From the NCBI RefSeq assembly GCF_030013595.1, contig NZ_CP122768.1: a stretch of 64,000 nucleotides of DNA; one strand, given 5' to 3'. Below the pieces are notes generated by a model. That model saw only the letters and a list, made by a program, of their open reading frames with translations. It did not search any database and had not been told where the DNA came from. The stretch comes from Escherichia coli. Its GTDB lineage: Bacteria; Pseudomonadota; Gammaproteobacteria; Enterobacterales; Enterobacteriaceae. The translations under genes were made by a program, and so were the position numbers. Shown piece after piece: positions 9,108 through 37,406 of the stretch; the first letter of the stretch is position 1; each line of letters starts with the position of its first letter.

Positions 9108-10679
9108 TTACTGAGAGCTCAGATCAACTTTCCAGGGCAACAGATCGCGTACCCGGTTTGCCGGCCAGTCCTGGATATGTTCAATGACGTAACGCAGCCA
9201 CTTTTCTGGCTCCACATTGTTCAGACGGCATGTGCCGATCAGCGAGTACAACACCGCCGCATGTTCACCACCGCTGTCGGAACCCGCGAACATCCAGTTT
9301 TTCCGGCCTACGGCCACTCCCCGTAAGGCGTTCTCTGCGATGTTGTTGTCGATTTCCACCCAGCCATTACTGCAGTACACGTTCAGTGCATCCCACTGTT
9401 TCAGCAGGTATGCGAACGCTTTTGCCGTATCTGAGTGACGCGACAGTGTTTTCATCTGTTGCTGTATCCAGTCATACAGTGACTGCATCAGTGGCGCGGC
9501 TCTGGCTTTTCTTGCCGCCAGACGCTGTTCTGCTGAACAGCCCCGGACCTCTGCCTCGATGGCATACAGTTCACCGATACGCTGCAGGGCTTCCGTGGTG
9601 ATGTAGGTGGGCGCTCTTGCATGCACATCGTGGATTTTTCTCCGGGCATGAGCCATACACGCGGCTTCCGTTATTCTGCCGGATTCGTATAACGCCCGGT
9701 AACCACCGTAAGCATCGGCCTGAAGCACACCGCTGTAACCGGCCAGGTGATTTTGTGGATGGATACCTTTCCGGTCCGGACTGTACGCGAACCAGACCGC
9801 CGGGGGCATCTGTGAACCGGCGTTACGGTCATCACGGACGTAGACCCACAGCCGGGCTGTCCGGGTTTTACCGCTGCCCGGCTCCTGGACCGGGACGGGG
9901 ATATCATCAGCATGGACTTTACCGGGCATCAGCACATACTGGCGCAGGACGTCATACAGCGGCTCCAGCAGTTCAGCAACAGCACCTGTCCAGCGCCCCA
10001 GTGTGGCACGGCTCAGCTCCACTCCCTGACGACGGTATATTTCTGACTGGCGGTATAACGGCAGATGGTCTGCATATTTCCCGGTGACAACATGGGCCAG
10101 AAGCCCCGCTCCGGCATAACTGCGTGCAATGGGTTTTGAAGGTACTGGTGCCTGTACGATATGGTCGCACCGGCAACAGGCCTGTTTCGGACGTTGTGTT
10201 TCGATAACCTTAAAGGCGCTGCTGATAAGCTCCAGTTGCTCTGACACATCACATCCCAGAGAACTGAGTTCACCACCACAGGCAGGACAGCATTCCTCTT
10301 CCGGCCGGATAACCCGGGTTTCACGGGGAAGTGAGGCCGGTAACGGTTTACGGGCTGAAGACTGGCGCAGGGCGGATGGCAGTACCGGGTCATATTGCTC
10401 ACCCAGCGTTTCCGCCATTTCTTCCTGAAGTGCGCTGATTCGCTCCTGTGCTTCCTGTATCTGCCGTTCGGTTTTTGCACGAAGTTTTTCTGAGCTTTTA
10501 CCGAACTGCATACGTTGCAGTTTCGCAACCAGCGCCTTCAGCCGGTTGATTTCGGAAGCATAAGCCGCCACCCGCTGTGAGAGCAGGCGGTTGTATTCAG
10601 CCATCTGGCGGATGGTGTCCTGTTGCGTCTGCAACAGTGCCCGCAGGCGGGCGTTCTCATGAGCAAGTGAGGTGTCCAT
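9108..10679 (-). CDS. tnpC: IS66-family transposase TnpC (orf3)
   Basis: 523-aa protein with an N-terminal coiled coil, a Cys-rich zinc-finger region (CPACGG...CCRCD) and a DDE-type core. Confidence 0.85.
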
Positions 10680-10698
10680 ATCCTCACTTTACAACGGG

Positions 10699-11046
10699 TT
10701 ATATGCGGATTCCAGCGCGTTCCGTTCGTTTCGGGTGCTTCCAGTTGATACCTTCAAGAAGCATGGATAACTGAGCCGGAGTAAGGTGCACCTTGCCGTC
10801 ACGGGTGACTGGCCAGACGAAGCGGCCCCGCTCCAGGCGTTTGGTGAAGAGGCACAGTCCGTCACTGTCAGCCCACAACACTTTTATCTGGTCACCCCGG
10901 CGTCCGCGGAAGATGAACAGGTGTCCGGAGAACGGGTCATCCTTCAGGACGTTCTGAACTTTTGATGCCAGGCCGTTAAAGCCATTTCGCATATCGGTGA
11001 TACCTGCAACCAGCCAGATACGCGAACCTGCAGGGAGAGATATCAT
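10699..11046 (-). CDS. tnpB: IS66-family accessory protein TnpB (orf2)
   Basis: 115-aa protein (MISLPAGSRIWLVAGITDMRNGFNGL...) typical of IS66 Orf2. Confidence 0.8.
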   Translation of the reverse strand: MISLPAGSRIWLVAGITDMRNGFNGLASKVQNVLKDDPFSGHLFIFRGRRGDQIKVLWADSDGLCLFTKRLERGRFVWPVTRDGKVHLTPAQLSMLLEGINWKHPKRTERAGIRI

Positions 11047-11720
11047 CAGTGGCTGCTCCCTTTTATTTCGCGGATAAGTGTCTGTAATAACGCCGGCGTC
11101 AGTTTACCTTTAAGCCTGAGAGTTCCGGCCGGCAGAACCAGCTCACAACACAGACTGTCGGACGGTGTATTTATCTGCTCTGGTTCCTGTGCGGGGGCCG
11201 GGATTTTATTATCCGGCTCCGGCGTTAACGTCACGGGAAGCAGTGCCGGCATATTTTTTCCGGAAGGCAGCAGGCCACCTTTCCGGTATTGATGGCGCCA
11301 GTTGAAGAGCAGGTTATCGTTGATTCCGTTTTCCCGGGCGATCTGCGCCACACAGGCTCCGGGCTGCAGTGACTGCTCCACTAAGGCGATTTTAAACTCA
11401 TAAGGGAAGTTGGGCCGCCGGGGACGTTTTTTTACCACGGGGGCTTCGGATATAACGGTGCTTTCAGGACGTACGACTGGTACCGTGGAAAATTGTCCGT
11501 AAAGGCAGGCATCAAGTTCCTGCTCCGACATGCCTGCGGGCAAAGGCCACGAAAGGCCAGCTCTCCGAAAGCGCACGAACATACTACAAACTGTTGATTT
11601 TGGTACACCCAGGCGACGCCCGGCCACAACCCGGGGTAAATGTTCTTCAAAGTGAAGACGTAAAGCTTCAGTGATCCAGGTCCGGTGTTTCATACGATAG
11701 TGTCCATTAAAAATGGACAT
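11046..11720 (-). CDS. tnpA: IS66-family TnpA (orf1) with an N-terminal extension
   Basis: Helix-turn-helix region FPYEFKIALVEQSLQPGACVAQIARENGINDNLLFNWRHQY. The stop overlaps the tnpB start. Which Met is the true start is unresolved. Confidence 0.65.
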   Translation of the reverse strand: MSIFNGHYRMKHRTWITEALRLHFEEHLPRVVAGRRLGVPKSTVCSMFVRFRRAGLSWPLPAGMSEQELDACLYGQFSTVPVVRPESTVISEAPVVKKRPRRPNFPYEFKIALVEQSLQPGACVAQIARENGINDNLLFNWRHQYRKGGLLPSGKNMPALLPVTLTPEPDNKIPAPAQEPEQINTPSDSLCCELVLPAGTLRLKGKLTPALLQTLIREIKGSSH

Positions 11721-11772
11721 TATTTTTGTAGAGCCGGAGGAAACAGACCAGACGGTTTAAATGAGCCGGTTA

Positions 11773-12237
11773 CTATTCAGCTTCATAAAGCTTTTTGAAC
11801 ATGGGGCTTTGATCCCAGGCGATCCCTTTGTAACGCTTCATATTTTTCCGCAATTCATCCTTTGAAAGATTCATAAAACGGATTTTTAATTTTTCATCGG
11901 TTTCAGTGTTGTAAACCAAATGTTCCATCCCACGCCAGGAGGACTCCAGTTTCTGAAATTCCGGATGACTCAGGATTAGTTTGATCTGCTCAGTTAATTT
12001 GAAATCGATCTGCTCAATAATCGCAGCAATACTTTTATAAGCGTCGTCACTGACGGTGACGGTATTTGTCAAAGCCTGTTGGGCCAGCGTCTGAACTGCT
12101 GCCTCAACAGCCTTTGCTGCCTGAGGTGTCTTGGGACGGAAGGCTTTATCCAGGAGCGAATCAAATTCAGTGTCCTGATAGGCAGTGGTTTGCGCAGCAG
12201 AGAGTTCGCCAGTCGCCAGAAGAGTATCGTTTACCAT
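11773..12237 (-). pseudogene. tssC: T6SS sheath large subunit TssC, truncated to the N-terminal 154 codons by the IS66 element
   Basis: Contains the conserved FQKLESSWRG block of the TssC/VipB N-terminus. The reading frame ends in a TAG formed at the IS junction, and the remaining ~350 codons are absent. Confidence 0.8.
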
Positions 12238-12261: not shown

Positions 12262-12807
12262 TTAGTCTGCTGTTCCCGTTTCACCTGATAAGACACTTTC
12301 CTGTTGAGCGACAGGTTTTGGCGCACTAGCCAGAGCTTTCAGTAACGTAGGGTCTTGTAATAGTTTGTTGATAAGATTTTCTGCTCCCGCTTTACCATCC
12401 ATGTAGGTTTGTAGGTTGGCAAGCTGAGTACGCGCTTCCAGCAGCTGGTTCAGGGCATCCACCTTACGGGCAATCTGCGCAGGCGAAAAATCGTCCATAT
12501 TCTCTAACGTGATATCGACCATTAACTGCCCTTCGCCCGTCAGCGTATTGGGGACAGCAAACGCCACGCGCGGCGCAATGGCTTTCATCCTCTCGTTGAA
12601 GTTATCGATATCAATATCAAGGAATTTACGATCGGTGACCGGCGGCAGCTCTTCACGCGGTTTACCCGCCAGGTCGGCCAGCACCGCCATGACAAACGGC
12701 AGTTCGATTTTTTTCTCGGAGCCGTAAATCTCAACGTCATACTCAATCTGCACGCGGGGCGCGCGGTTGCGGGCAATAAACTTCTGCGCGCTGTTGTTGA
12801 TAGCCAT
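12262..12807 (-). CDS. tssB: T6SS sheath small subunit TssB (VipA)
   Basis: 181-aa protein with the TssB signature IEYDVEIYGSEKKIELPFVMAVLADLAG. Confidence 0.85.
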   Translation of the reverse strand: MAINNSAQKFIARNRAPRVQIEYDVEIYGSEKKIELPFVMAVLADLAGKPREELPPVTDRKFLDIDIDNFNERMKAIAPRVAFAVPNTLTGEGQLMVDITLENMDDFSPAQIARKVDALNQLLEARTQLANLQTYMDGKAGAENLINKLLQDPTLLKALASAPKPVAQQESVLSGETGTAD

Positions 12808-13737: not shown

Positions 13738-16371
13738 TTAATCCGTTTCAAAAATAATCTGTTCATCCTCATCAACACGAATGCGGATTTGCGTGATGGC
13801 CGTTTTCTCTGTCATCGCCTGCAACCAATAACGGGACAGTTGTGGGAGGATATGTTGTTCGATATAGCCGATGAGCAAACGAGCGCCGGTCTCGTGCATC
13901 GGGCAGCGCGACACAATATGCGTAATCAGTTCATCGCCATACACCAGTGAAACGCCATGCCGCTCCGCCATCCGATCCATCAATCTGCCAAGATGCAGGC
14001 GGGCAATAACACCACGCGCGGTCTCATCCAGCGGTAAATAAGGAATAACCGTCACACGCCCCAGGAAAGCCGCCGGGAAGTGTTTACGTAACTCCGGCAT
14101 TAACGCCTCTTTTAACCCTGCCGAATCGGGCATCAGCGCCGGATCTTCACAGAGCTGGCTGATAAGTTCCGCCCCCGCGTTAGTAGTCAACAACAGCGTG
14201 GTATTTTTGAAATCGATGTGGACACCTTCGCCATCTTCCATCGCCCCCTTATCAAACACCTGGAAGAACAGCTCGTGGACGTCGTGATGGGCTTTTTCAA
14301 TTTCATCTAGCAATACCACGCTCCAGGGATGGCGGCGTACCGCTTCCGTCAACACACCGCCTTCGCCATAGCCGACGTAGCCGGGCGGCGCGCCTTTCAG
14401 AGTGGAGACTGTGTGAGACTCCTGATACTCGCTCATGTTGATGGTGATCAGATTCTGTTCACCGCCATAGATTGCTTCTGCCAGTGCCAGCGCGGTCTCA
14501 GTCTTGCCTACTCCGGACGGCCCGGCCAGCAAAAAGACACCCACAGGCTTACGCGGGTCACCTAAACCCGCCCGCGCGGTCTGGATACGCTCGCCAATCT
14601 GCGCCAACGCATCCATCTGCCCGGTAACACGCTGCGCCAAACGGGTGGGCAATTCCAGTATCTGACTGGCTTCATCTTTCACCATCCGTCCGGCGGGAAT
14701 ACCGGTCCAGTCGGAGACAATCTCTGCCACCACGGTTGCACTGACTTCCGGGTACACGACAGGGTTTTCACCCTGCCAGCCTCTTAATGCCGTTTCTGCC
14801 TGTTGTAGAGTGATTTCGTCGCGCTCGCCAGGCGCTGCGCCGCGTTGCTCCTGTAAACTGCGAACCAACTCCAGTTCCTGCTGCCACCGCGCTTCGGTGT
14901 CAGAAAGATCGGCATTAAGCGATATAATCCGCGCCGTCAGTACATCGCCCCGCTCCGAGCGGATACCCATTTTTTCCTGCTTTAATAACAACTCCTGCTC
15001 CAGTTCGGCAGCGTTGAGCTGCTGGCGCAGATACTGGACTCTCGCAGGCGGGGTATGCAGCGACAGCGCTACACGGGCCGCCGCCGTATCCAACAGGCTG
15101 ATGGCCTTATCCGGTAGTTGCCGGGCCGGAATGTAACGGTGAGAAAGCTGTACGGCGGCGCGCACGGCCTCATCAAGAATCAGGACATCATGGTGTTCTT
15201 CAAGCGTGGTGACTAATCCGCGCACCATCTCAACAGCCGCAACCTCTTCCGGCTCAGCAACCTGCAATACCTGAAAACGCCGGGTCAGCGCCGGATCCTT
15301 TTCGATATGGCGTTTGTACTCGCTCCAGGTGGTTGCGCCGATGGTGCGCAGAGTGCCACGCGCCAGCGCCGGTTTCAGCAAGTTGGCAGCATCCCCCGTA
15401 CCGGATGTACCACCAGCGCCCACCAGGGTGTGAACTTCATCAACAAAAAGTATCACCGGCTGCGCCGAGCGCGCGGCCTCTTCCAGCAAAGCTTTCAGGC
15501 GGGATTCAAATTCACCCTTCATGGACGCCCCAGCCAGCAGCGCTCCAACATCCAGTGACAGCAACCGCACGTTACGCAGTGAAGGCGGCACTTCCCCCCC
15601 GGCAATCGCCAGCGCGAATCCTTCCACCACTGCCGTTTTCCCGACCCCCGCCTCGCCGGTCAGCAGCGGGTTGTTCTGGCGACGGCGCAGCAGAATATCC
15701 GTCATAGTACGGATCTCGTGTTCGCGGCCGGTGACCGGATCGATATTGCCTTCACGGGCCAGCGCAGTCATGTCCTGGCAGTATTTCGCCAGCGCGGATT
15801 TACTTCCGGTTGATTCGCCGGCAAAGACCTGGCTAGCTTCCCCCGGTACTGCAGAATTTAAATCCGAGCCGTCATAAGGCATTTCTGTTAATTCAGGAGA
15901 TGAAGTGATTAAAGACGGAAGAATATCTAATAGTTCATCTACCGGTAGCTCTGCCAATGGCGCACAAATATTTTTTAACACCCGACACAATTCTGGCGTG
16001 GTTAACCAGGCAAGTAATAACCATCCACTACGAATTTTTTGATCGCCAAAGCGGATACTTGCCAACATCCAGGCTTTTTCAACAGAAAGATCGATATGAT
16101 GGGAAAAATCGTTAATTACACTCGCTCCGGCAGGCAATATATTCAATTGCTGAATTAACGCCTTCTCAACATCAGCAGATGTTATTTGATAATGTCGAAG
16201 CACATTGTGAATGTCATTCTCTGGTTGTTGTATTAACTGATGCAACCAATGCGTCAGTTCGACATAAGGATTAGCGCGTAATTTACAGAACGTCGTCGCA
16301 GATTCCAAAGATCTAAACAAAGATTTGGTTAGCTTTCCATACAGTGCACTGCGCGAAACAGGAGTGTCCAT
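13738..16371 (-). CDS. clpV: T6SS AAA+ ATPase ClpV (TssH)
   Basis: 877-aa protein with two AAA+ modules (Walker A GEAGVGKT and GPSGVGKT) and a ClpV-type N-domain. Confidence 0.9.
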   Translation of the reverse strand: MDTPVSRSALYGKLTKSLFRSLESATTFCKLRANPYVELTHWLHQLIQQPENDIHNVLRHYQITSADVEKALIQQLNILPAGASVINDFSHHIDLSVEKAWMLASIRFGDQKIRSGWLLLAWLTTPELCRVLKNICAPLAELPVDELLDILPSLITSSPELTEMPYDGSDLNSAVPGEASQVFAGESTGSKSALAKYCQDMTALAREGNIDPVTGREHEIRTMTDILLRRRQNNPLLTGEAGVGKTAVVEGFALAIAGGEVPPSLRNVRLLSLDVGALLAGASMKGEFESRLKALLEEAARSAQPVILFVDEVHTLVGAGGTSGTGDAANLLKPALARGTLRTIGATTWSEYKRHIEKDPALTRRFQVLQVAEPEEVAAVEMVRGLVTTLEEHHDVLILDEAVRAAVQLSHRYIPARQLPDKAISLLDTAAARVALSLHTPPARVQYLRQQLNAAELEQELLLKQEKMGIRSERGDVLTARIISLNADLSDTEARWQQELELVRSLQEQRGAAPGERDEITLQQAETALRGWQGENPVVYPEVSATVVAEIVSDWTGIPAGRMVKDEASQILELPTRLAQRVTGQMDALAQIGERIQTARAGLGDPRKPVGVFLLAGPSGVGKTETALALAEAIYGGEQNLITINMSEYQESHTVSTLKGAPPGYVGYGEGGVLTEAVRRHPWSVVLLDEIEKAHHDVHELFFQVFDKGAMEDGEGVHIDFKNTTLLLTTNAGAELISQLCEDPALMPDSAGLKEALMPELRKHFPAAFLGRVTVIPYLPLDETARGVIARLHLGRLMDRMAERHGVSLVYGDELITHIVSRCPMHETGARLLIGYIEQHILPQLSRYWLQAMTEKTAITQIRIRVDEDEQIIFETD

Positions 16372-16703: not shown

Positions 16704-17624
16704 ATGAAACCAAATATTACGTGGGGACTCCAAAAAATACAGGCGCACGGGATCGCCGATAACACAATTTACGCGACTGAAGGAACCCAAATTATCTTCA
16801 CCGTTACCTCCCCCTGGATTCCTGTTTTTGAGGTGAATGATGATGTAAAGATTGCCCTCAGTCTGACCCGCCACGAAGAAGCATGGTGGATTATCAATCA
16901 GTCTACCGAATATTGCTGTACGGTAAACGACCAGATTGTGGAACCTCATCACCGTATGCGTCTGAATGAAGGCGACCTGATAGAATGGGGGTTATCTTCA
17001 TGGTGCCTTGTGCACGGCAATCCATCATCTCCGGACCTGAGCGCAGTAAAAACGACATCGCAGACTGCCACCATGTCGGAAACAATAACCGAATATCTGG
17101 ATCTGGATTGGTTCAGGCAGCAGCATCTGACATCACAAAATCCATTCGATATCATTCCTGTTCATGGAGCCTCCTCCACTGGAGAAGATGCTAAAAAAGA
17201 AAATGCCCTGACTCGACTTTATCAGGAATACCGCGAGGCGTTGTTATCTCCTGAACAAGATCTTCATCGCCATGCTGATCCTTTTCCCTTTAACGAAGAG
17301 CCCTCCTCACAGGATCTGGATTCATTGCGTGATCTGGTCACTGAAGCCGAGACATTGCAGGATATGGTCACTGGCGGGTTAAGCATTGACGCTATTCTCG
17401 ATGTCCTGGACGCCACCGGCGAAGGGGAAACCGCCTGGCCTGCCGAAAAGACGCCCCCAGATATCCTGCACCTGCTATCCCCGGAATGCGCACCGGAAAC
17501 AGCGCATAACACCGTTCTGCCCGACCTGACACGCAAAGAGCATCGCATCATTGGCATTGACATTGACAGCCATTATCGGATAAACCCGGCACAACACGGA
17601 GAGATATCTCATGACAAACAATAA
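16704..17624 (+). CDS. tagH: T6SS-associated FHA-domain protein (TagH/Fha-like), short form
   Basis: N-terminal FHA-like domain and an acidic C-terminal half. First gene of the + strand T6SS operon. Confidence 0.65.
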   Translation: MKPNITWGLQKIQAHGIADNTIYATEGTQIIFTVTSPWIPVFEVNDDVKIALSLTRHEEAWWIINQSTEYCCTVNDQIVEPHHRMRLNEGDLIEWGLSSWCLVHGNPSSPDLSAVKTTSQTATMSETITEYLDLDWFRQQHLTSQNPFDIIPVHGASSTGEDAKKENALTRLYQEYREALLSPEQDLHRHADPFPFNEEPSSQDLDSLRDLVTEAETLQDMVTGGLSIDAILDVLDATGEGETAWPAEKTPPDILHLLSPECAPETAHNTVLPDLTRKEHRIIGIDIDSHYRINPAQHGEISHDKQ

Positions 17625-18441
17625 CGAGCTACCGGCTACCCTGTCGGCGCTGCTGCGGGATTATTCCGTGGCGGAGGGCATTCAAATGGCAGAACAGCAG
17701 GTCAGGATGCACCCGGCGCAGGCCTCCCGCCGCCACAGCCTATTTCAGTTATTGTGCGTGGCAGGCTACTGGTCGCGGGCACTGCAACAGATCCAGCTAT
17801 GCGCCCGGATGGACGCAAATTATACCCGCGAAGCGCAGGTATTTGGCGAGCTGATACGCTGTGAGATATACCGCCACGCCTGCTTTCAGGGAGAACAGCG
17901 GCCCGATTTTATTCTCCCGCCGCCCGCCTGGATGGAGGATCTGCTGACCGCCCTCGCCTGTAACGCTCGTGGTGAAGCGCAGGAAGCTGACGCCCACCGC
18001 AGCCGCGCACTTGAGGCCATAACAGATACTGCAGGGCAGTGGAATGGTGGCGCATTTGACTGGATTAGCGACAGCGACTCCCGTACCGGTCCGGTACTCG
18101 AACTCATCGCGGGCGGAGTATATATCTGGCTGCCGTTTTCACAAATCTGTTCGCTAAAATCGCCGCGGCCTGCGCATCTGACCGATTTGATCTGGAAACC
18201 CGTCAACGTCACACTGAATAATGGCGACACACACAGTGCCTGGCTGTTTTCCCGCTACAGCGGCTCTGAAAAGGCTGCCGACTCCCTGCGTCTGTGCCGG
18301 GAAACGGTCTGGCAGGACGGGCCGGGAGAGACTCTGGTACAGGCGCTGGGTCAGAGGGTGTGGCTCACCGGTCACGGCGATATCAGCCTGCTGGATTTGT
18401 CCACCTGTACCTTTAACACCGCTGAAGGAAGCGACGCGTGA
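17611..18441 (+). CDS. tagJ: T6SS accessory protein TagJ (ImpE family)
   Basis: 276-aa protein of ImpE-like size, translationally coupled between the FHA gene and tssE. Confidence 0.6.
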   Translation: MTNNNELPATLSALLRDYSVAEGIQMAEQQVRMHPAQASRRHSLFQLLCVAGYWSRALQQIQLCARMDANYTREAQVFGELIRCEIYRHACFQGEQRPDFILPPPAWMEDLLTALACNARGEAQEADAHRSRALEAITDTAGQWNGGAFDWISDSDSRTGPVLELIAGGVYIWLPFSQICSLKSPRPAHLTDLIWKPVNVTLNNGDTHSAWLFSRYSGSEKAADSLRLCRETVWQDGPGETLVQALGQRVWLTGHGDISLLDLSTCTFNTAEGSDA

Positions 18442-18932
18442 GCGCTTCCCGCCAGCGTCCGGGCAATCACCTGCTGCCCACGCTGTTTGACCGCCTGTGT
18501 GATGATGCCCCAAACCAGAAACGCGACCACGATATCAGCGTCAGCCCGGTTCAGCTTAAGGAGATCATTCGCCGGGATTTGTCATTTCTGCTCAACACCG
18601 TCAGCCATGAAGATGATATTGATGCTGCACGTTATCCGGACGCGGCAGCGTCCGTACTGAACTACGGCCTGCCGCCACTGGCGGGCAGCTTTCTGTATGA
18701 ACACAAGTGGGACGATATTCGCAGGGCCATTTTGCGTACCATCATCCGGTTTGAACCCCGGCTGAAAGCGTCCACCCTGCAAATCATCCCACTTCAGGAT
18801 GAGCGCCACCAGAGCGGCCATAACACATTACAGTTTGAAATTCGCGGCGAGATCCTCACGCAGCCCTACCCGATGGCATTCCGGGTACGCAGCGCGCTGG
18901 ATATGGAACAGAGCCGCATTACGTTTTTTTAA
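18438..18932 (+). CDS. tssE: T6SS baseplate protein TssE (gp25-like)
   Basis: 164-aa protein. Its start overlaps the tagJ stop and it immediately precedes tssF. Confidence 0.8.
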   Translation: MSASRQRPGNHLLPTLFDRLCDDAPNQKRDHDISVSPVQLKEIIRRDLSFLLNTVSHEDDIDAARYPDAAASVLNYGLPPLAGSFLYEHKWDDIRRAILRTIIRFEPRLKASTLQIIPLQDERHQSGHNTLQFEIRGEILTQPYPMAFRVRSALDMEQSRITFF

Positions 18933-18947
18933 TTCAGAGAGAAACCG

Positions 18948-20830
18948 ATGGATCCACGGCTACTGGAATACTACAACCGCGAACTGAGCTATCTGCGGGA
19001 AACGGGAGCCGAATTTGCCGCCCGTCATCCTAAAGTCGCCGCCCGACTGGGTATGCAGGGAACGGATATTGCCGATCCGTATGTGGAGCGAATGGTCGAG
19101 GCCTTCAGCTTCCTGACCGCCCGCACGCAGCTAAAAATTGACGCTGAATTCCCCCGTTTCACCCAGCGTCTGCTGGAAGTGGTCAGCCCCAATTACGTCA
19201 CACCCACGCCCTCAATGAGCGTGGCGCAGCTTCATCCCAATCCGGAAGAAGGCGATCTGGCGAAGGGATTCACCGTCCCGCGCAACACGGCCTTTTTTTC
19301 CGCCATTCCGGAAGGCGAAAGTACCGCCTGCCAGTTTCGTAGCAGCCAGAATGTGACGCTGTGGCCGCTTGCCATCGAAGAGGTGCGGCTGACCGCCGCG
19401 CCGCCGGATATGCCTGCCCTGCACCGCTACCTGCCAGCCAACATTCACGTCGCTGGTGCGCTGCGTATTACCCTGCGCACCTTTGGTGAACTGACGTTCA
19501 GTCAGCTTGCAGGGCTGAACAAGCTGCCATTTTATCTCTGCGGCGAGGAGCGCACGGCCTCACACCTGTTCGAACTACTGCATACCAGCGCCATCGCGAG
19601 CCTGGCTGGCATTCCGGGGCATTTTGACGGCGCACTGGATGTGAATCTGAAACAGCCCGTTATGTACGAAGGCCTGGATCCGGATCAGGGACTGTTGCCG
19701 CTGGCGTGGAATGTGTTTCACGGCCATAACCTGCTACATGAATATTTTACCTGTCCGGAACGCTTCTTTTTTTCACCCCGACAGGCCTGTCTGCCGGGTT
19801 ACAGAAAATTAACGGCGGCGTGGCGGAGATTGTTATCCTGCTGAACCGCCTGCCGCCGGACTGGCTGATCCACCAGACAAACGCGGCACAGTTCAGCCTG
19901 TTCTGTACCCCGGTTATCAACCTGTTTCCCCGCGTCGCCGCCCGGATCGATGTCACGCACAGCACGACGGAACAGCATCTGGTGGTGGACAGAACCCATC
20001 CGCTGGATTATGAGGTGTTCTCGGTCCAGGAAGTGGAAGGGCTGGAAACTGACACCACACGGAAGATGGCCTTTCGCCCGCTCTACCACACCCGCAATAA
20101 TGATGAAGGCAATCACGGACGTTATTTTTCCCTGCGCCGGGAGCCGCGCCGGTTGTCGGAAAATGCCCGCCGCTATGGCACCCGCACCTCCTATACAGGA
20201 TCAGAAGTGTTCCTGTCGCTGGTTGACCAGTATGAAGCGCCGTACCCGGAAAATCTGCGCCATATCACCATCACGGCTATGGTCACCAACCGCGATCTGC
20301 CCTGTCTTATTGCCCGCAATGGACGGGACGATCTGACCGTGGATGCGGCCATCCCGGTGGCGGGCGTGGGGCTTATCCGTCCGCCGCGTCCGCCGCAGCC
20401 TCCGCTGGCTGAACGTGAAATGGCCTGGCGGTTGATCCGCCAGTTATCCTTTAACTATCTGCCGCTGGCCGATCTGGATCACCGTACCGGTGGTCAGGCG
20501 CTGCGCGATCTGCTTAACCTGTTTATTCCGGCGCATGACAGTCCGCAGTCGCGCCAGGTGCGCAGCCTGATTGGCTGCAACACCACCCCGGTCACCCGCC
20601 GTCTGCCCGGTTCCGGGCTGCTGGTCTATGGGCGCGGCGTCAGTTGTGAACTGACCGTGGATGAGGAGGGGTTCTCCGGTATCAGTCCGTATCTGTTCGG
20701 TCTGGTGTTGGAGCACTATATCGCCCGTCATGTTTCCATTAATACCTTCTCGCAGATGACGCTGCACAGCATGCAGCGCGGCAAAATTATGACCTGGCCT
20801 GCCAGGGCGGGACAGCGGGGAAGCGTATGA
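18948..20830 (+). pseudogene. tssF: T6SS baseplate protein TssF, interrupted by a frameshift in a T7 homopolymer
   Basis: Two overlapping ORFs (18948-19844 and 19820-20830) together give a TssF-sized protein of about 620 aa. The frame changes inside the T-run at 19767-19773. Confidence 0.75.
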
Positions 20831-21822
20831 GCGACGATTTCACTCAGGCGCAGGAAACCCCCTGGCGTTACGGTTTTCTGAACCTGATGCGCCGCGTGGA
20901 TGTGCAGTTGTGTACTGTTCCGGCAGGCAACACCTGGCAACCACGGATGGAAAAATTTCGCCTCGGACAAACTCCCGCGCTGACCTTTGCGCCACGGGAA
21001 ATCGCCAGTGTGAGCTGGCAGGAAGAGCGGCTGCACATCAGTTTGTACAGTCTCGGGCTGTGGGAGCCGAACGGTCCACTGCCGCTGCACTACACCGAAC
21101 TGGCGCGCAACCGGACTGAAAGCCGAAGAGACCCGACGCTAACCCGTTTTTCTGATCTTTTTCATCACCGCTGGCTGACGCAGTTTTACCAGGCATGGCG
21201 CAGCGCCCAGTCCGCTGGGGGCGGTCTGGATAAACCACAACATGACCGTTTTGCCTTTTATATCGCCAGCCTCAGCGGGCAGGATTTGCGGGAGAGCGCC
21301 GACAGCCCGTTGCCGGATCACGCTCGCCTGGCGGCATCGGCCCATCTGGTGCGTGAGTCCCGCAATCCGGACGGTCTGGCCACCACGCTGGCGCACTATT
21401 TCGGTGTACCTTTCCGGATACAGGAGTATGTCCTGCACTGGATAGCCGTGGCGGACGATGAGATCACCCGGCTGGGGATGCCAGCCCCCTCTTCCGTTAT
21501 TGGCAACGGTGCACTCATCGGCCAGGCCGTGCCGGACATGCAGTATAAGTTCCGGCTGGTTATCGGCCCGCTGACGCTGGAGGATTACCGACGTTTTCTG
21601 CCTGGCGGCAATAACCTGCCAGTCCTGACAGAACTGGTCCGCGCCTTTAGCGGTTTTGAATACTGCTGGGAAATTGAGCTACAGCTAAAGCCCCACGCCG
21701 CCCCTCCGGCTGTTACCGGTGGTTCGTACCAACTGGGCTGGACCGCATGGGCGGGTAAAGCCATGCACGAAAACCCGGTGACGGGCATGATTTTCGAACC
21801 AGAACACTACCTGGCGCACTGA
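20827..21822 (+). CDS. tssG: T6SS baseplate protein TssG
   Basis: 331-aa protein whose start overlaps the tssF stop (ATGA), in the conserved tssE-F-G order. Confidence 0.8.
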   Translation: MSDDFTQAQETPWRYGFLNLMRRVDVQLCTVPAGNTWQPRMEKFRLGQTPALTFAPREIASVSWQEERLHISLYSLGLWEPNGPLPLHYTELARNRTESRRDPTLTRFSDLFHHRWLTQFYQAWRSAQSAGGGLDKPQHDRFAFYIASLSGQDLRESADSPLPDHARLAASAHLVRESRNPDGLATTLAHYFGVPFRIQEYVLHWIAVADDEITRLGMPAPSSVIGNGALIGQAVPDMQYKFRLVIGPLTLEDYRRFLPGGNNLPVLTELVRAFSGFEYCWEIELQLKPHAAPPAVTGGSYQLGWTAWAGKAMHENPVTGMIFEPEHYLAH

Positions 21823-21832
21823 GGATAATTTA

Positions 21833-22879
21833 ATGGATACATCCCTGTCTGACCCAATTTCGGCAGAATGCCCCTGCGGCCCGGATCTGGAGTACGATCC
21901 GGAATACCTGCTACTGTTCACGCGCGCCGCACCGCGTGAAGAAGCGCAATACGGCGATTTTGTCAGTACGCCGGAAACCATTAACTGGGCGGAGCTTGAG
22001 CGGGATGCCTGCCGACTGCTGACGCGCAGCAAAGATATCCGCATTCTGGTTGTCCTGCTGCGCTGCCGTATCCAGCAGGCCGGTGCCAGGGGACTGGCGG
22101 AGGCGCTCGCGCTGCTGGAAACGTTGTGCGCCACGTACCCGAACGCCATCCATCCTCAACTGCTCGCGACTGAAGATATCACCGCCGAAGAGGCGGCAGT
22201 GGCACGTAGTAACGCCCTGGCGGCGTTGCTGGACCATGAAGGCGTAATAGCGGATATTCGTGGCATTACACTGTCAAACAATGCTGCCATACGCCTTCAG
22301 GTACGGGATGTGGAGCGTTCGCTGTCTGCATCACGCCCGGCGGATGCGCTGGCACCAGAATCGGTACGCCAGCAACTGGCCGACCTGGAGGCGCGCGGCA
22401 CACTGCCGCTGGATGCCTTTCGCCAGGCCGCAGAGACCACTGAGCGGCTGCAACGCCATGCGCGTGAAACGCTGAATGACCAGGCACCGAACCTATCCCG
22501 TCTGACACAATTGCTGGCCCTGTTGCCGGGAGCGATACGGACCACCACGCCGGAGATCCTGCCACAACCAGTGGCTGAACAGCCGGAGAGCACCACCATC
22601 GTTCATACTGAACAGATATCATCAGAGCAGATTGCGCTACCGGTGCATATCGCGGAGGAAATATCACCGATGTCCGGCGCAGACCCCCGGCAGATCCGCG
22701 ACCGGAACGACGCGCTGGAACGCCTGCGTGTCATCCGTCGCTGGTTTGAGCACAGCGAACCGAGCAGCCCGACCATTCCTTTGCTGCGCCAGGCAGAACG
22801 CCTGGTCGGAAAACGCTTCTCGGAGGTAATAAATGAAATTCCAGTAGAACTGCTGGAAAAATGGGATGCGCTGGAGTAA
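21833..22879 (+). CDS. tssA: ImpA N-domain protein (TssA family, short form)
   Basis: N-terminus MDTSLSDPISAECPCGPDLEYDPEY resembles the ImpA_N domain. At 348 aa it is shorter than canonical TssA. Confidence 0.65.
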   Translation: MDTSLSDPISAECPCGPDLEYDPEYLLLFTRAAPREEAQYGDFVSTPETINWAELERDACRLLTRSKDIRILVVLLRCRIQQAGARGLAEALALLETLCATYPNAIHPQLLATEDITAEEAAVARSNALAALLDHEGVIADIRGITLSNNAAIRLQVRDVERSLSASRPADALAPESVRQQLADLEARGTLPLDAFRQAAETTERLQRHARETLNDQAPNLSRLTQLLALLPGAIRTTTPEILPQPVAEQPESTTIVHTEQISSEQIALPVHIAEEISPMSGADPRQIRDRNDALERLRVIRRWFEHSEPSSPTIPLLRQAERLVGKRFSEVINEIPVELLEKWDALE

Positions 22880-23010: not shown

Positions 23011-23087
23011 TGGCGGAACGGACGGGACTCGAACCCGCGACCCCCTGCGTGACAGGCAGGTATTCTAACCGACTGAACTACCGCTCC
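23011..23087 (-). tRNA. aspV: tRNA-Asp (GUC)
   Basis: The reverse complement reads GGAGCGGTAGTTCAGTCGGTTAGAATACCTGCCTGTCACGCAGGGGGTCGCGGGTTCGAGTCCCGTCCGTTCCGCCA. Confidence 0.95.
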
Positions 23088-31190: not shown

Positions 31191-31222
31191 CGAAAAAAAA
31201 CCTCGAGCGTTAACTCGAGGCT
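31191..31222 (-). terminator. rrn operon terminator downstream of aspU
   Basis: Hairpin CCTCGAG...CTCGAGG followed by a U8 tract on the - strand. Confidence 0.7.
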
Positions 31223-31232
31223 TCTTAATAAG

Positions 31233-31309
31233 TGGCGGAACGGACGGGACTCGAACCCGCGACCCCCTGCGTGACAGGCAGGTATTCTAACCGACTGAAC
31301 TACCGCTCC
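31233..31309 (-). tRNA. aspU: tRNA-Asp (GUC), distal gene of the rrn operon
   Basis: Identical to the aspV sequence and located 3' of the 5S rRNA. Confidence 0.95.
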
Positions 31310-36833: not shown

Positions 36834-37406
36834 TTACGCCGGTTTTTGCTGCTTTTTTATCGCTTGCGGCAGGTCTGCCAGGCTATTTAACACCCAATCC
36901 GCCGCGTTTTCTGCTTCAGGCGTAACAGGTTTACCCGTACGCACCAGCACTTTTGTTCCCACGTTCGCCGCAGCCGCTGCCTGCATATCTTCTAATTTAT
37001 CGCCCACCATATAAGAAGCGGCCATATCAATATGCAAATAATCGCGTGCCGATAAAAGCATCCCCGGATGTGGTTTGCGGCAGTCGCAGACCTGGCGAAA
37101 CTCTTCAACACTACCCTGCGGATGATGCGGGCAATAATAGATACCATCCAGATCGACATCGCGGTCCGCCAGCGACCAGTCCATCCACTCGGTCAGCGTT
37201 TCAAACTGTGCTTCAGTAAATTTACCGCGAGCAATGCCAGACTGGTTGGTTACTACCACCAGCGCAAAGCCCATTTTTTTTAGCTCGCGCATGGCGTCAA
37301 TAACACCGTCGATAAATTCAAAGTTGTCGATCTCATGGACATAGCCGTGATCGACATTAATGGTGCCATCACGGTCAAGAAAAATTGCGGGTACGCTCTT
37401 CGCCAC
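36834..37406 (-). CDS. gmhB: D-glycero-D-manno-heptose 1,7-bisphosphate phosphatase
   Basis: HAD-family motif FLDRDGTIN at the N-terminus; 190 aa. Confidence 0.9.

Follow-up and report, generated by a model that had tools for sequence, protein, structure and literature searches.

The reading frame of tssF at 18948-20830 of the window (the whole 64,000-nucleotide stretch of Escherichia coli DNA analysed here) is interrupted, and the locus raises the question of whether the gene has been inactivated by a genuine single-base deletion, has been made to look broken by a base-calling error, or is held out of frame as a functional device. The first-pass annotation had put a true inactivating mutation first and a sequencing error second, with a slippage site regarded as less likely, and our analysis arrives at the same ranking with programmed slippage in last place. 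We consider a real 1-bp deletion to be the best reading of the sequence evidence, with a probability of roughly 0.7.

Reading of the bases at 19760-19780 (ACGCTTC-TTTTTTT-CACCCCG) places a run of seven thymines (T7) exactly where the annotation had located it (Table 1). The upstream ORF, 18948-19844, ends in ...CPERFFFSPRQACLPGYRKLTAAWRRLLSC (also written as ...EYFTCPERFFFSPRQACLPGYRKLTAAWRRLLSC), while a shift of one base back gives ...TLLFFTPTGLSAGLQKINGGVAEIVILLNRLPPD... across the same tract, in a frame that stays open to 20830, the true TssF frame being picked up directly 3' of the tract at 19774. Both frames had been described in this way beforehand, as had the expectation that one extra T would fuse them, and both points were borne out: insertion of a single T generates a 1884-nt ORF of 627 aa that differs at 0/1884 nucleotides from tssF of E. 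coli HCP5S3_I2, annotated there as intact (WP_000371482.1). Removal of two Ts (T5) likewise restores the frame, giving 626 aa. The repaired protein matches the NCBIfam TssF equivalog profile TIGR03359 over positions 1-598 of 600 in a single stretch, at 617 bits against a curated cut-off of 260 bits (TssF is also Pfam PF05947), and aligns to the TssF of EAEC (PDB 6GIY) over residues 1-619, with the break falling in the conserved LLxEYFTxxEKFxF segment. The alignment of the fused protein to TssF homologues, which had been proposed as a check, therefore restores continuity. Since a single full-length profile match coincides with an exact repair, the two ORFs are contiguous halves of TssF and are jointly TssF-sized, as had been suggested; the gene order tssE-tssF-tssG within the T6SS cluster is that of annotated E. 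coli loci. The uninterrupted tssF ORF of about 600-630 aa that marks a functional gene is absent, and ORFs of 298 aa and 336 aa stand in its place.

The gene lies in a SPI-6-like T6SS island adjoining tRNA-Asp, and the window runs from the flhA'-fadE-yafV region through the island to aspV-dnaQ and on to rrnH, metNIQ, dnaE and bamA. Such a tssF, at 90% nucleotide identity or more, is found in about 127 of the 5,426 complete RefSeq E. coli genomes. What survives of the island is tssC', tssB, two small ORFs, tssH, tagK, tagJ, tssE, the split tssF, tssG and tssA. On the left, the sequence up to 9077 shows 100% identity to the border of the intact-length HCP5S3_I2 island that faces yafV, and the alignment of the window to the island of that genome ends at 11774. 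By comparison with HCP5S3_I2, no match to the rest of tssC or to tae4/tai4, hcp, tssJ, tssK, tssL and tssM was found within the 64-kb window. The other signs of decay mentioned in the annotation are accordingly present: ISCro1 cuts tssC, and one half of the cluster is missing. Because tssC is reduced to a remnant and an entire arm is gone, the T6SS at this locus is predicted to be a non-functional remnant irrespective of the state of tssF. The 61-bp stretch between ISCro1 and tssC' probably represents one end of an element of the IS3 family.

Table 1. Features of the T6SS island remnant and of the split tssF gene, in window coordinates.
Feature	Coordinates	Strand	Basis or remark
ISCro1 (IS66 family), complete	9078..11715	-	stands in place of the tssC 3' end and of the tae4, tai4, hcp, tssJ, tssK, tssL, tssM arm
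61-bp stretch between ISCro1 and tssC'	11713..11773	.	100% to HCP5S3_I2 18263-18323, beside an IS3 transposase there
tssC remnant, first ~154/504 codons	11774..12237	-	TIGR03355 profile positions 3-132 of 473
tssB, intact	12262..12807	-	TIGR03358
tssH / clpV, intact	13738..16371	-	TIGR03345, 1219 bits
tagK, 306 aa	16704..17624	+	NF033418; in-frame 6-bp tandem duplication at 17555-17560
tagJ (ImpE family)	17611..18441	+	HCP5S3_I2 annotation; Pfam PF07024
tssE, intact	18438..18932	+	TIGR03357
tssF, probable pseudogene (T6SS baseplate subunit), -1 frameshift	18948..20830	+	+1 T repair, TIGR03359, 6GIY alignment
tssF N-terminal fragment ORF, 298 aa	18948..19844	+	residues 1-275 of TssF, final ~23 aa out of frame; TIGR03359 positions 1-260
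Second tssF T7 tract, intact here	19293..19299	+	internal control; -1 variant recurs elsewhere
T7 homopolymer	19767..19773	+	probable 1-nt deletion site; T8 in intact alleles; T8 in 21/21 closely matching complete E. coli genomes
tssF C-terminal fragment ORF, 336 aa from GTG 19820	19820..20830	+	TIGR03359 positions 279-598
tssG, intact	20827..21822	+	TIGR03347; start overlaps tssF stop
tssA, intact ORF	21833..22879	+	TIGR03363; HCP5S3_I2 annotation
tRNA-Asp (aspV position), right T6SS island border	23011..23087	-	HCP5S3_I2 annotation

Several observations on the island stand beside the tssF question. Besides the tRNA-Asp(GTC) gene at the island border, the window has a second at 31233-31309 beside the rrn operon, with about 95 bp repeated at 94.8% identity. 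Among complete genomes with an intact tssF, HCP5S3_I2 is the closest, and its cluster (NZ_CM149870.1, 4860-5345 and 13680-18677) is also decaying, with an internal stop in hcp and with tagK split by ISCro1 and an IS3-family element. The IS66/tssC' junction recurs at 98.4% in E. coli PK-F-10122 (NZ_CM148631.1, 2679146-2679579), the sole complete RefSeq genome with this junction, whose tssF is a 92%-identity allele of the TAT type (see below) despite the common junction; the junction would be either old or transferred by recombination.

The closest relatives of the window were recognised by the 6-bp duplication in tagK, a repeat of CATTGA that lengthens TagK from 304 to 306 aa and marks a much-sequenced lineage. 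By exact-protein look-up many assemblies, which the index groups in 105 blocks, have the 306-aa TagK, and most members of this lineage have an intact T8 tssF. Two loci, L032 and L033, combine the IS66/tssC' (154 aa) junction of the window with the 306-aa TagK and yet are T8, and the 627-aa TssF is present in both and in about a dozen near-identical places. L033 departs from the window over 11.9 kb at only three sites (16811 A>C, T8 vs T7, and 21065 G>A), to which L032 adds 11896 and three sites within the IS, and in the tssE-tssA block the T7 window and the T8 relatives are separated by a single SNP in 5.2 kb. The substitutions at 16811 (tagK, synonymous) and 21065 (tssG) are private to the window against all same-lineage and other loci examined. 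As the nearest relatives sharing the junction are all T8, T7 is private to the window genome, and among the Logan loci its exact 298-aa fragment has no carrier within the window's own lineage. By parsimony across these few relatives, the frameshift would be younger than the IS-mediated truncation. Two further members of the lineage, L034 (GCA_030347985.1; T5) and L035 (T7), are 4.6-4.7-Mb contigs of long-read type which carry additional homopolymer deletions (C7 to C6, T7 to T6 and G4 to G3); the T5 of L034, which would encode an in-frame 626-aa TssF minus one Phe, is almost certainly technical.

Variation in tract length is not confined to the window. Within a 15-billion-protein collection, about 1525 contigs carry the full-length T8 form (591+487+318+84+40+5), compared with about 14-24 carrying T7 fragments and one each for T9 and T6, such that length variants, for the most part -1, account for some 1-2% of contigs. 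Exact-protein look-ups of both fragments showed that at least 16 more contigs (L002-L017), from independent runs, have this T7 allele. Apart from the runs ERR4562590/1, whose homopolymer deletions are many, T7 is the sole coding homopolymer indel of these contigs relative to HCP5S3_I2, and this holds for no fewer than 12 independent assemblies that are otherwise clean. One of these contigs, L004, shows 0 mismatches to HCP5S3_I2 in 5.6 kb apart from the tract and 0 SNPs from it across the 5.2-kb tssE-tssA block. A tree of this block and the accompanying SNP tables scatter T7 among T8 on at least eight backgrounds, and the window, L004 and the L010/L013 group each have their nearest T8 sequence at 0-1 SNP per 5.2 kb, nearer than the T7 sequences of the other groups. 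A single origin of T7, whether as a lineage marker or as a Shigella-specific allele, was rejected on these at least eight backgrounds, three of which have T8 twins 0-1 SNP away, although for some pairs T7 might still, strictly speaking, have been spread by short recombination tracts holding only the T tract. The contig L017 (ERR10854117), which is T7, is mosaic in the part homologous to window ~21400-22800: its tssE and tssF are near those of the window and the 3' part of its tssG and its tssA are about 10% divergent, a pattern that suggests recombination. Among the 5,426 complete RefSeq E. coli genomes there is no T7, with T8 in 21/21 of those that have the flanking sequence, and this absence is compatible with a frequency of about 1-2%.

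The second T7 tract of tssF served as an internal control for this site. On the same protein background, its -1 form (T6) occurs in 8 public contigs, as against 12 for the tract at 19767; some of the T6 contigs are clean (SRR25147230, three samples) and some are noisy. The idea that the T8 tract is exceptionally mutable was set aside, as the neighbouring T7 tract has a similar number of -1 variants.

The motif ERFYFF, with Tyr274, is found in Salmonella SPI-6 TssF, in S. flexneri TssF and in the E. coli alleles of 92-95% identity, where it is encoded by TTC TAT TTT TTC or TTT TAT TTT TTC, that is, by an interrupted T6. In the allele family of the window, Tyr274 is replaced by Phe (TAT to TTT), which yields TTC-TTT-TTT-TTC and an uninterrupted T8. 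Comparison of these codons indicates that the T8 tract is derived, a by-product of a conservative substitution, and, together with the variants described above, that it would be a recurrent slippage site which loses or gains a base.

Whether the window's own T7 could be a reading error is the more serious of the doubts. On that account the genome would truly be T8 and tssF intact, one T having been lost through homopolymer undercalling or incomplete polishing. The T8 state of the nearest relatives, L032 and L033, fits this account, and so do L034, L035 and the runs ERR4562590/1, which give T5 or T7 along with many other homopolymer deletions; since L034 and L035 are undercalled both at the tract and elsewhere, the tract can be miscalled, and we accept that the T7 or T5 of these noisy assemblies would be technical. 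A purely technical origin of T7 in the public assemblies was nevertheless rejected for most of them, as at least 12 loci are clean and several T7 lineages comprise multiple samples. The absence of T7 from the 5,426 complete genomes is weak evidence for an artefact, given that only about 0.3 occurrences (1-2% of 21) would be expected. The tssF tract is also the longest coding T-run. The window, in turn, is free of any other homopolymer discrepancy. Against the complete genome of HCP5S3_I2 there are 0 gaps in the 23,630 bp from 40371 to 64000, and between 17217 and 40902 the T tract is the sole coding frameshift, the only other coding indel being the in-frame tagK duplication that is common to same-lineage assemblies and the remaining indels being intergenic or in the rRNA operon. 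L032 and L033, both of Illumina type, have the same T7 and C7 tracts at 12708, 15594, 18924 and 19293; at 31193 the window has the A8 allele that is common in E. coli (2,485 genomes at 99% or more), its T8 at 37274 is concordant with other genomes, and the core genes of the window are all full-length ORFs. The nearby private substitutions at 16811 and 21065 suggest real divergence from the relatives. We favour a real deletion because about 47 kb of the window are without another coding indel, the in-frame tagK duplication aside, and because the other 8-base runs are concordant; an artefact at this tract is unlikely, while still carrying more weight than any functional reading.

Such a functional reading would see the tract as a device, namely as a phase-variation switch that turns the T6SS on and off, or as a T7 allele that is still expressed through insertion of a U by RNA polymerase or through a -1 ribosomal slip, and we regard it as very improbable. 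Tract length is indeed polymorphic between near-identical strains, as in a contingency locus, with T6, T7, T8 and T9 all seen, and, from the reading of the frames, the wild-type peptide ...ERFFFFTPTG would be rebuilt if tRNA-Phe slipped by -1 in the P site. Slippage of E. coli RNA polymerase on T7 runs has been reported at about 5% reporter rescue and 0.75% insertions by NGS (PMC6260861), and a trickle of full-length TssF from the T7 allele is plausible as generic leakiness. The T7 allele is, however, sporadic at about 1-2% of contigs, restricted to tips and fixed in no clade, with nearest relatives (L032 and L033) in frame and the T8 contigs counted above far outnumbering it, and no signal of reversion was found among the tract-length variants and in the tree examined; the two states are not both common, and the neighbouring tssF tract, affected about as often, makes the site nothing special. 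With 7 nt, the run only just reaches the length at which slippage by E. coli RNA polymerase is detected. Known programmed transcriptional slippage in bacteria uses A/T runs of 9-11 nt or more. With respect to translation, U7 is out of phase for an X XXY YYZ heptamer (0-frame UUC UUU UUU UCA), which leaves a single P-site slip as the only conceivable event. A stimulatory structure for -1 frameshifting would be expected 5-9 nt downstream. A small 7-bp hairpin starts here at +4 nt and is followed some 40 nt later by a stronger one; the 100-nt fold appears only mildly stable (z = -2.14), and the same sequence is present in intact T8 genes. Canonical -1 programmed ribosomal frameshifting was discarded, as the heptamer is not in phase and the structure downstream appears weak. 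Moreover, the cluster here is without most of tssC, the membrane complex and baseplate genes, so that no product could matter. The more ambitious proposal that the Tyr274Phe T8 would act as a mutational ON/OFF switch for the SPI-6-like T6SS in one E. coli sub-lineage, with T7 as a niche-favoured 'off' state that is partly leaky via U insertion, is likewise highly doubtful.

Ordinary frameshift pseudogenisation within a T6SS remnant is the most likely account of what is directly observed at this locus, that is, the lesion, its exact repair, the truncated cluster, the T8 state of the nearest relatives and the occurrence of T7 elsewhere. In the proposed course of events, Tyr274Phe would first have made an uninterrupted T8 in one E. 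coli tssF allele family, and ISCro1 would already have reduced the island to tssC'(154 aa)-tssB-tssH-tagK-tagJ-tssE-tssF-tssG-tssA when strand slippage during replication, the presumed mechanism, shortened T8 to T7. The deletion would shift the frame after Phe-275, stop translation at 19842-19844 and leave a non-functional baseplate gene. With the island already cut by ISCro1, selection on tssF would have been relaxed, and the deletion would be a secondary and very recent event that followed the truncation.

This type of event is already well known for T6SS genes (PMC10924462; bioRxiv 10.1101/2025.02.08.637259), although no report on this specific tssF tract was found in the literature. The T6SS of Shigella sonnei has indels and IS in tssM (PMC10924462), and loss-of-function in the experimental evolution of EAEC included a 1-bp deletion in tssM (bioRxiv 10.1101/2025.02.08.637259). 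The present case resembles these in that a single-base indel creates a premature stop in a structural T6SS gene alongside IS-mediated disruption of the cluster, and differs in that the gene is tssF and the T8 tract, made by a Tyr-to-Phe codon change, is hit recurrently across lineages. Transcriptional frameshifting has been described for tssM1 of Citrobacter rodentium and tssM of Yersinia pseudotuberculosis (Gueguen et al. 2014, PMC4256274), and in C. rodentium an A11 run shifts at about 20%, both products are needed and the whole species carries the allele. This T6SS precedent speaks for a device to the extent that here, too, an A/T homopolymer interrupts a core gene whose frame would be restored if the mRNA gained one nucleotide. 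Unlike tssM, however, the run is 7 rather than 11 nt, the allele is private or sporadic, its nearest relatives are in-frame T8 and the cluster is truncated. Homopolymeric-tract contingency loci, surveyed generally as phase variation by slipped-strand mispairing (PMC2831843), share with this tract a coding homopolymer whose length switches the frame among close relatives, but here the OFF state stays at about 1-2%, neither reversion nor selection on the tract is apparent, and the control tract behaves similarly.

For annotation, the locus would best be described as a tssF pseudogene inside a T6SS remnant, and neither as two genes nor as a recoding site. The same tract also calls for caution, as it is undercalled by homopolymer-error-prone sequencing. 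The one mildly notable point is the codon change behind the recurrent T8 slippage site: a single conservative change (TAT to TTT) would have produced a slippage-prone T8 in which independent tssF frameshifts recur, amounting to about 1-2% of the assemblies of this allele. The locus may in this way offer a small and concrete case of synonymous-looking sequence context shaping gene loss.
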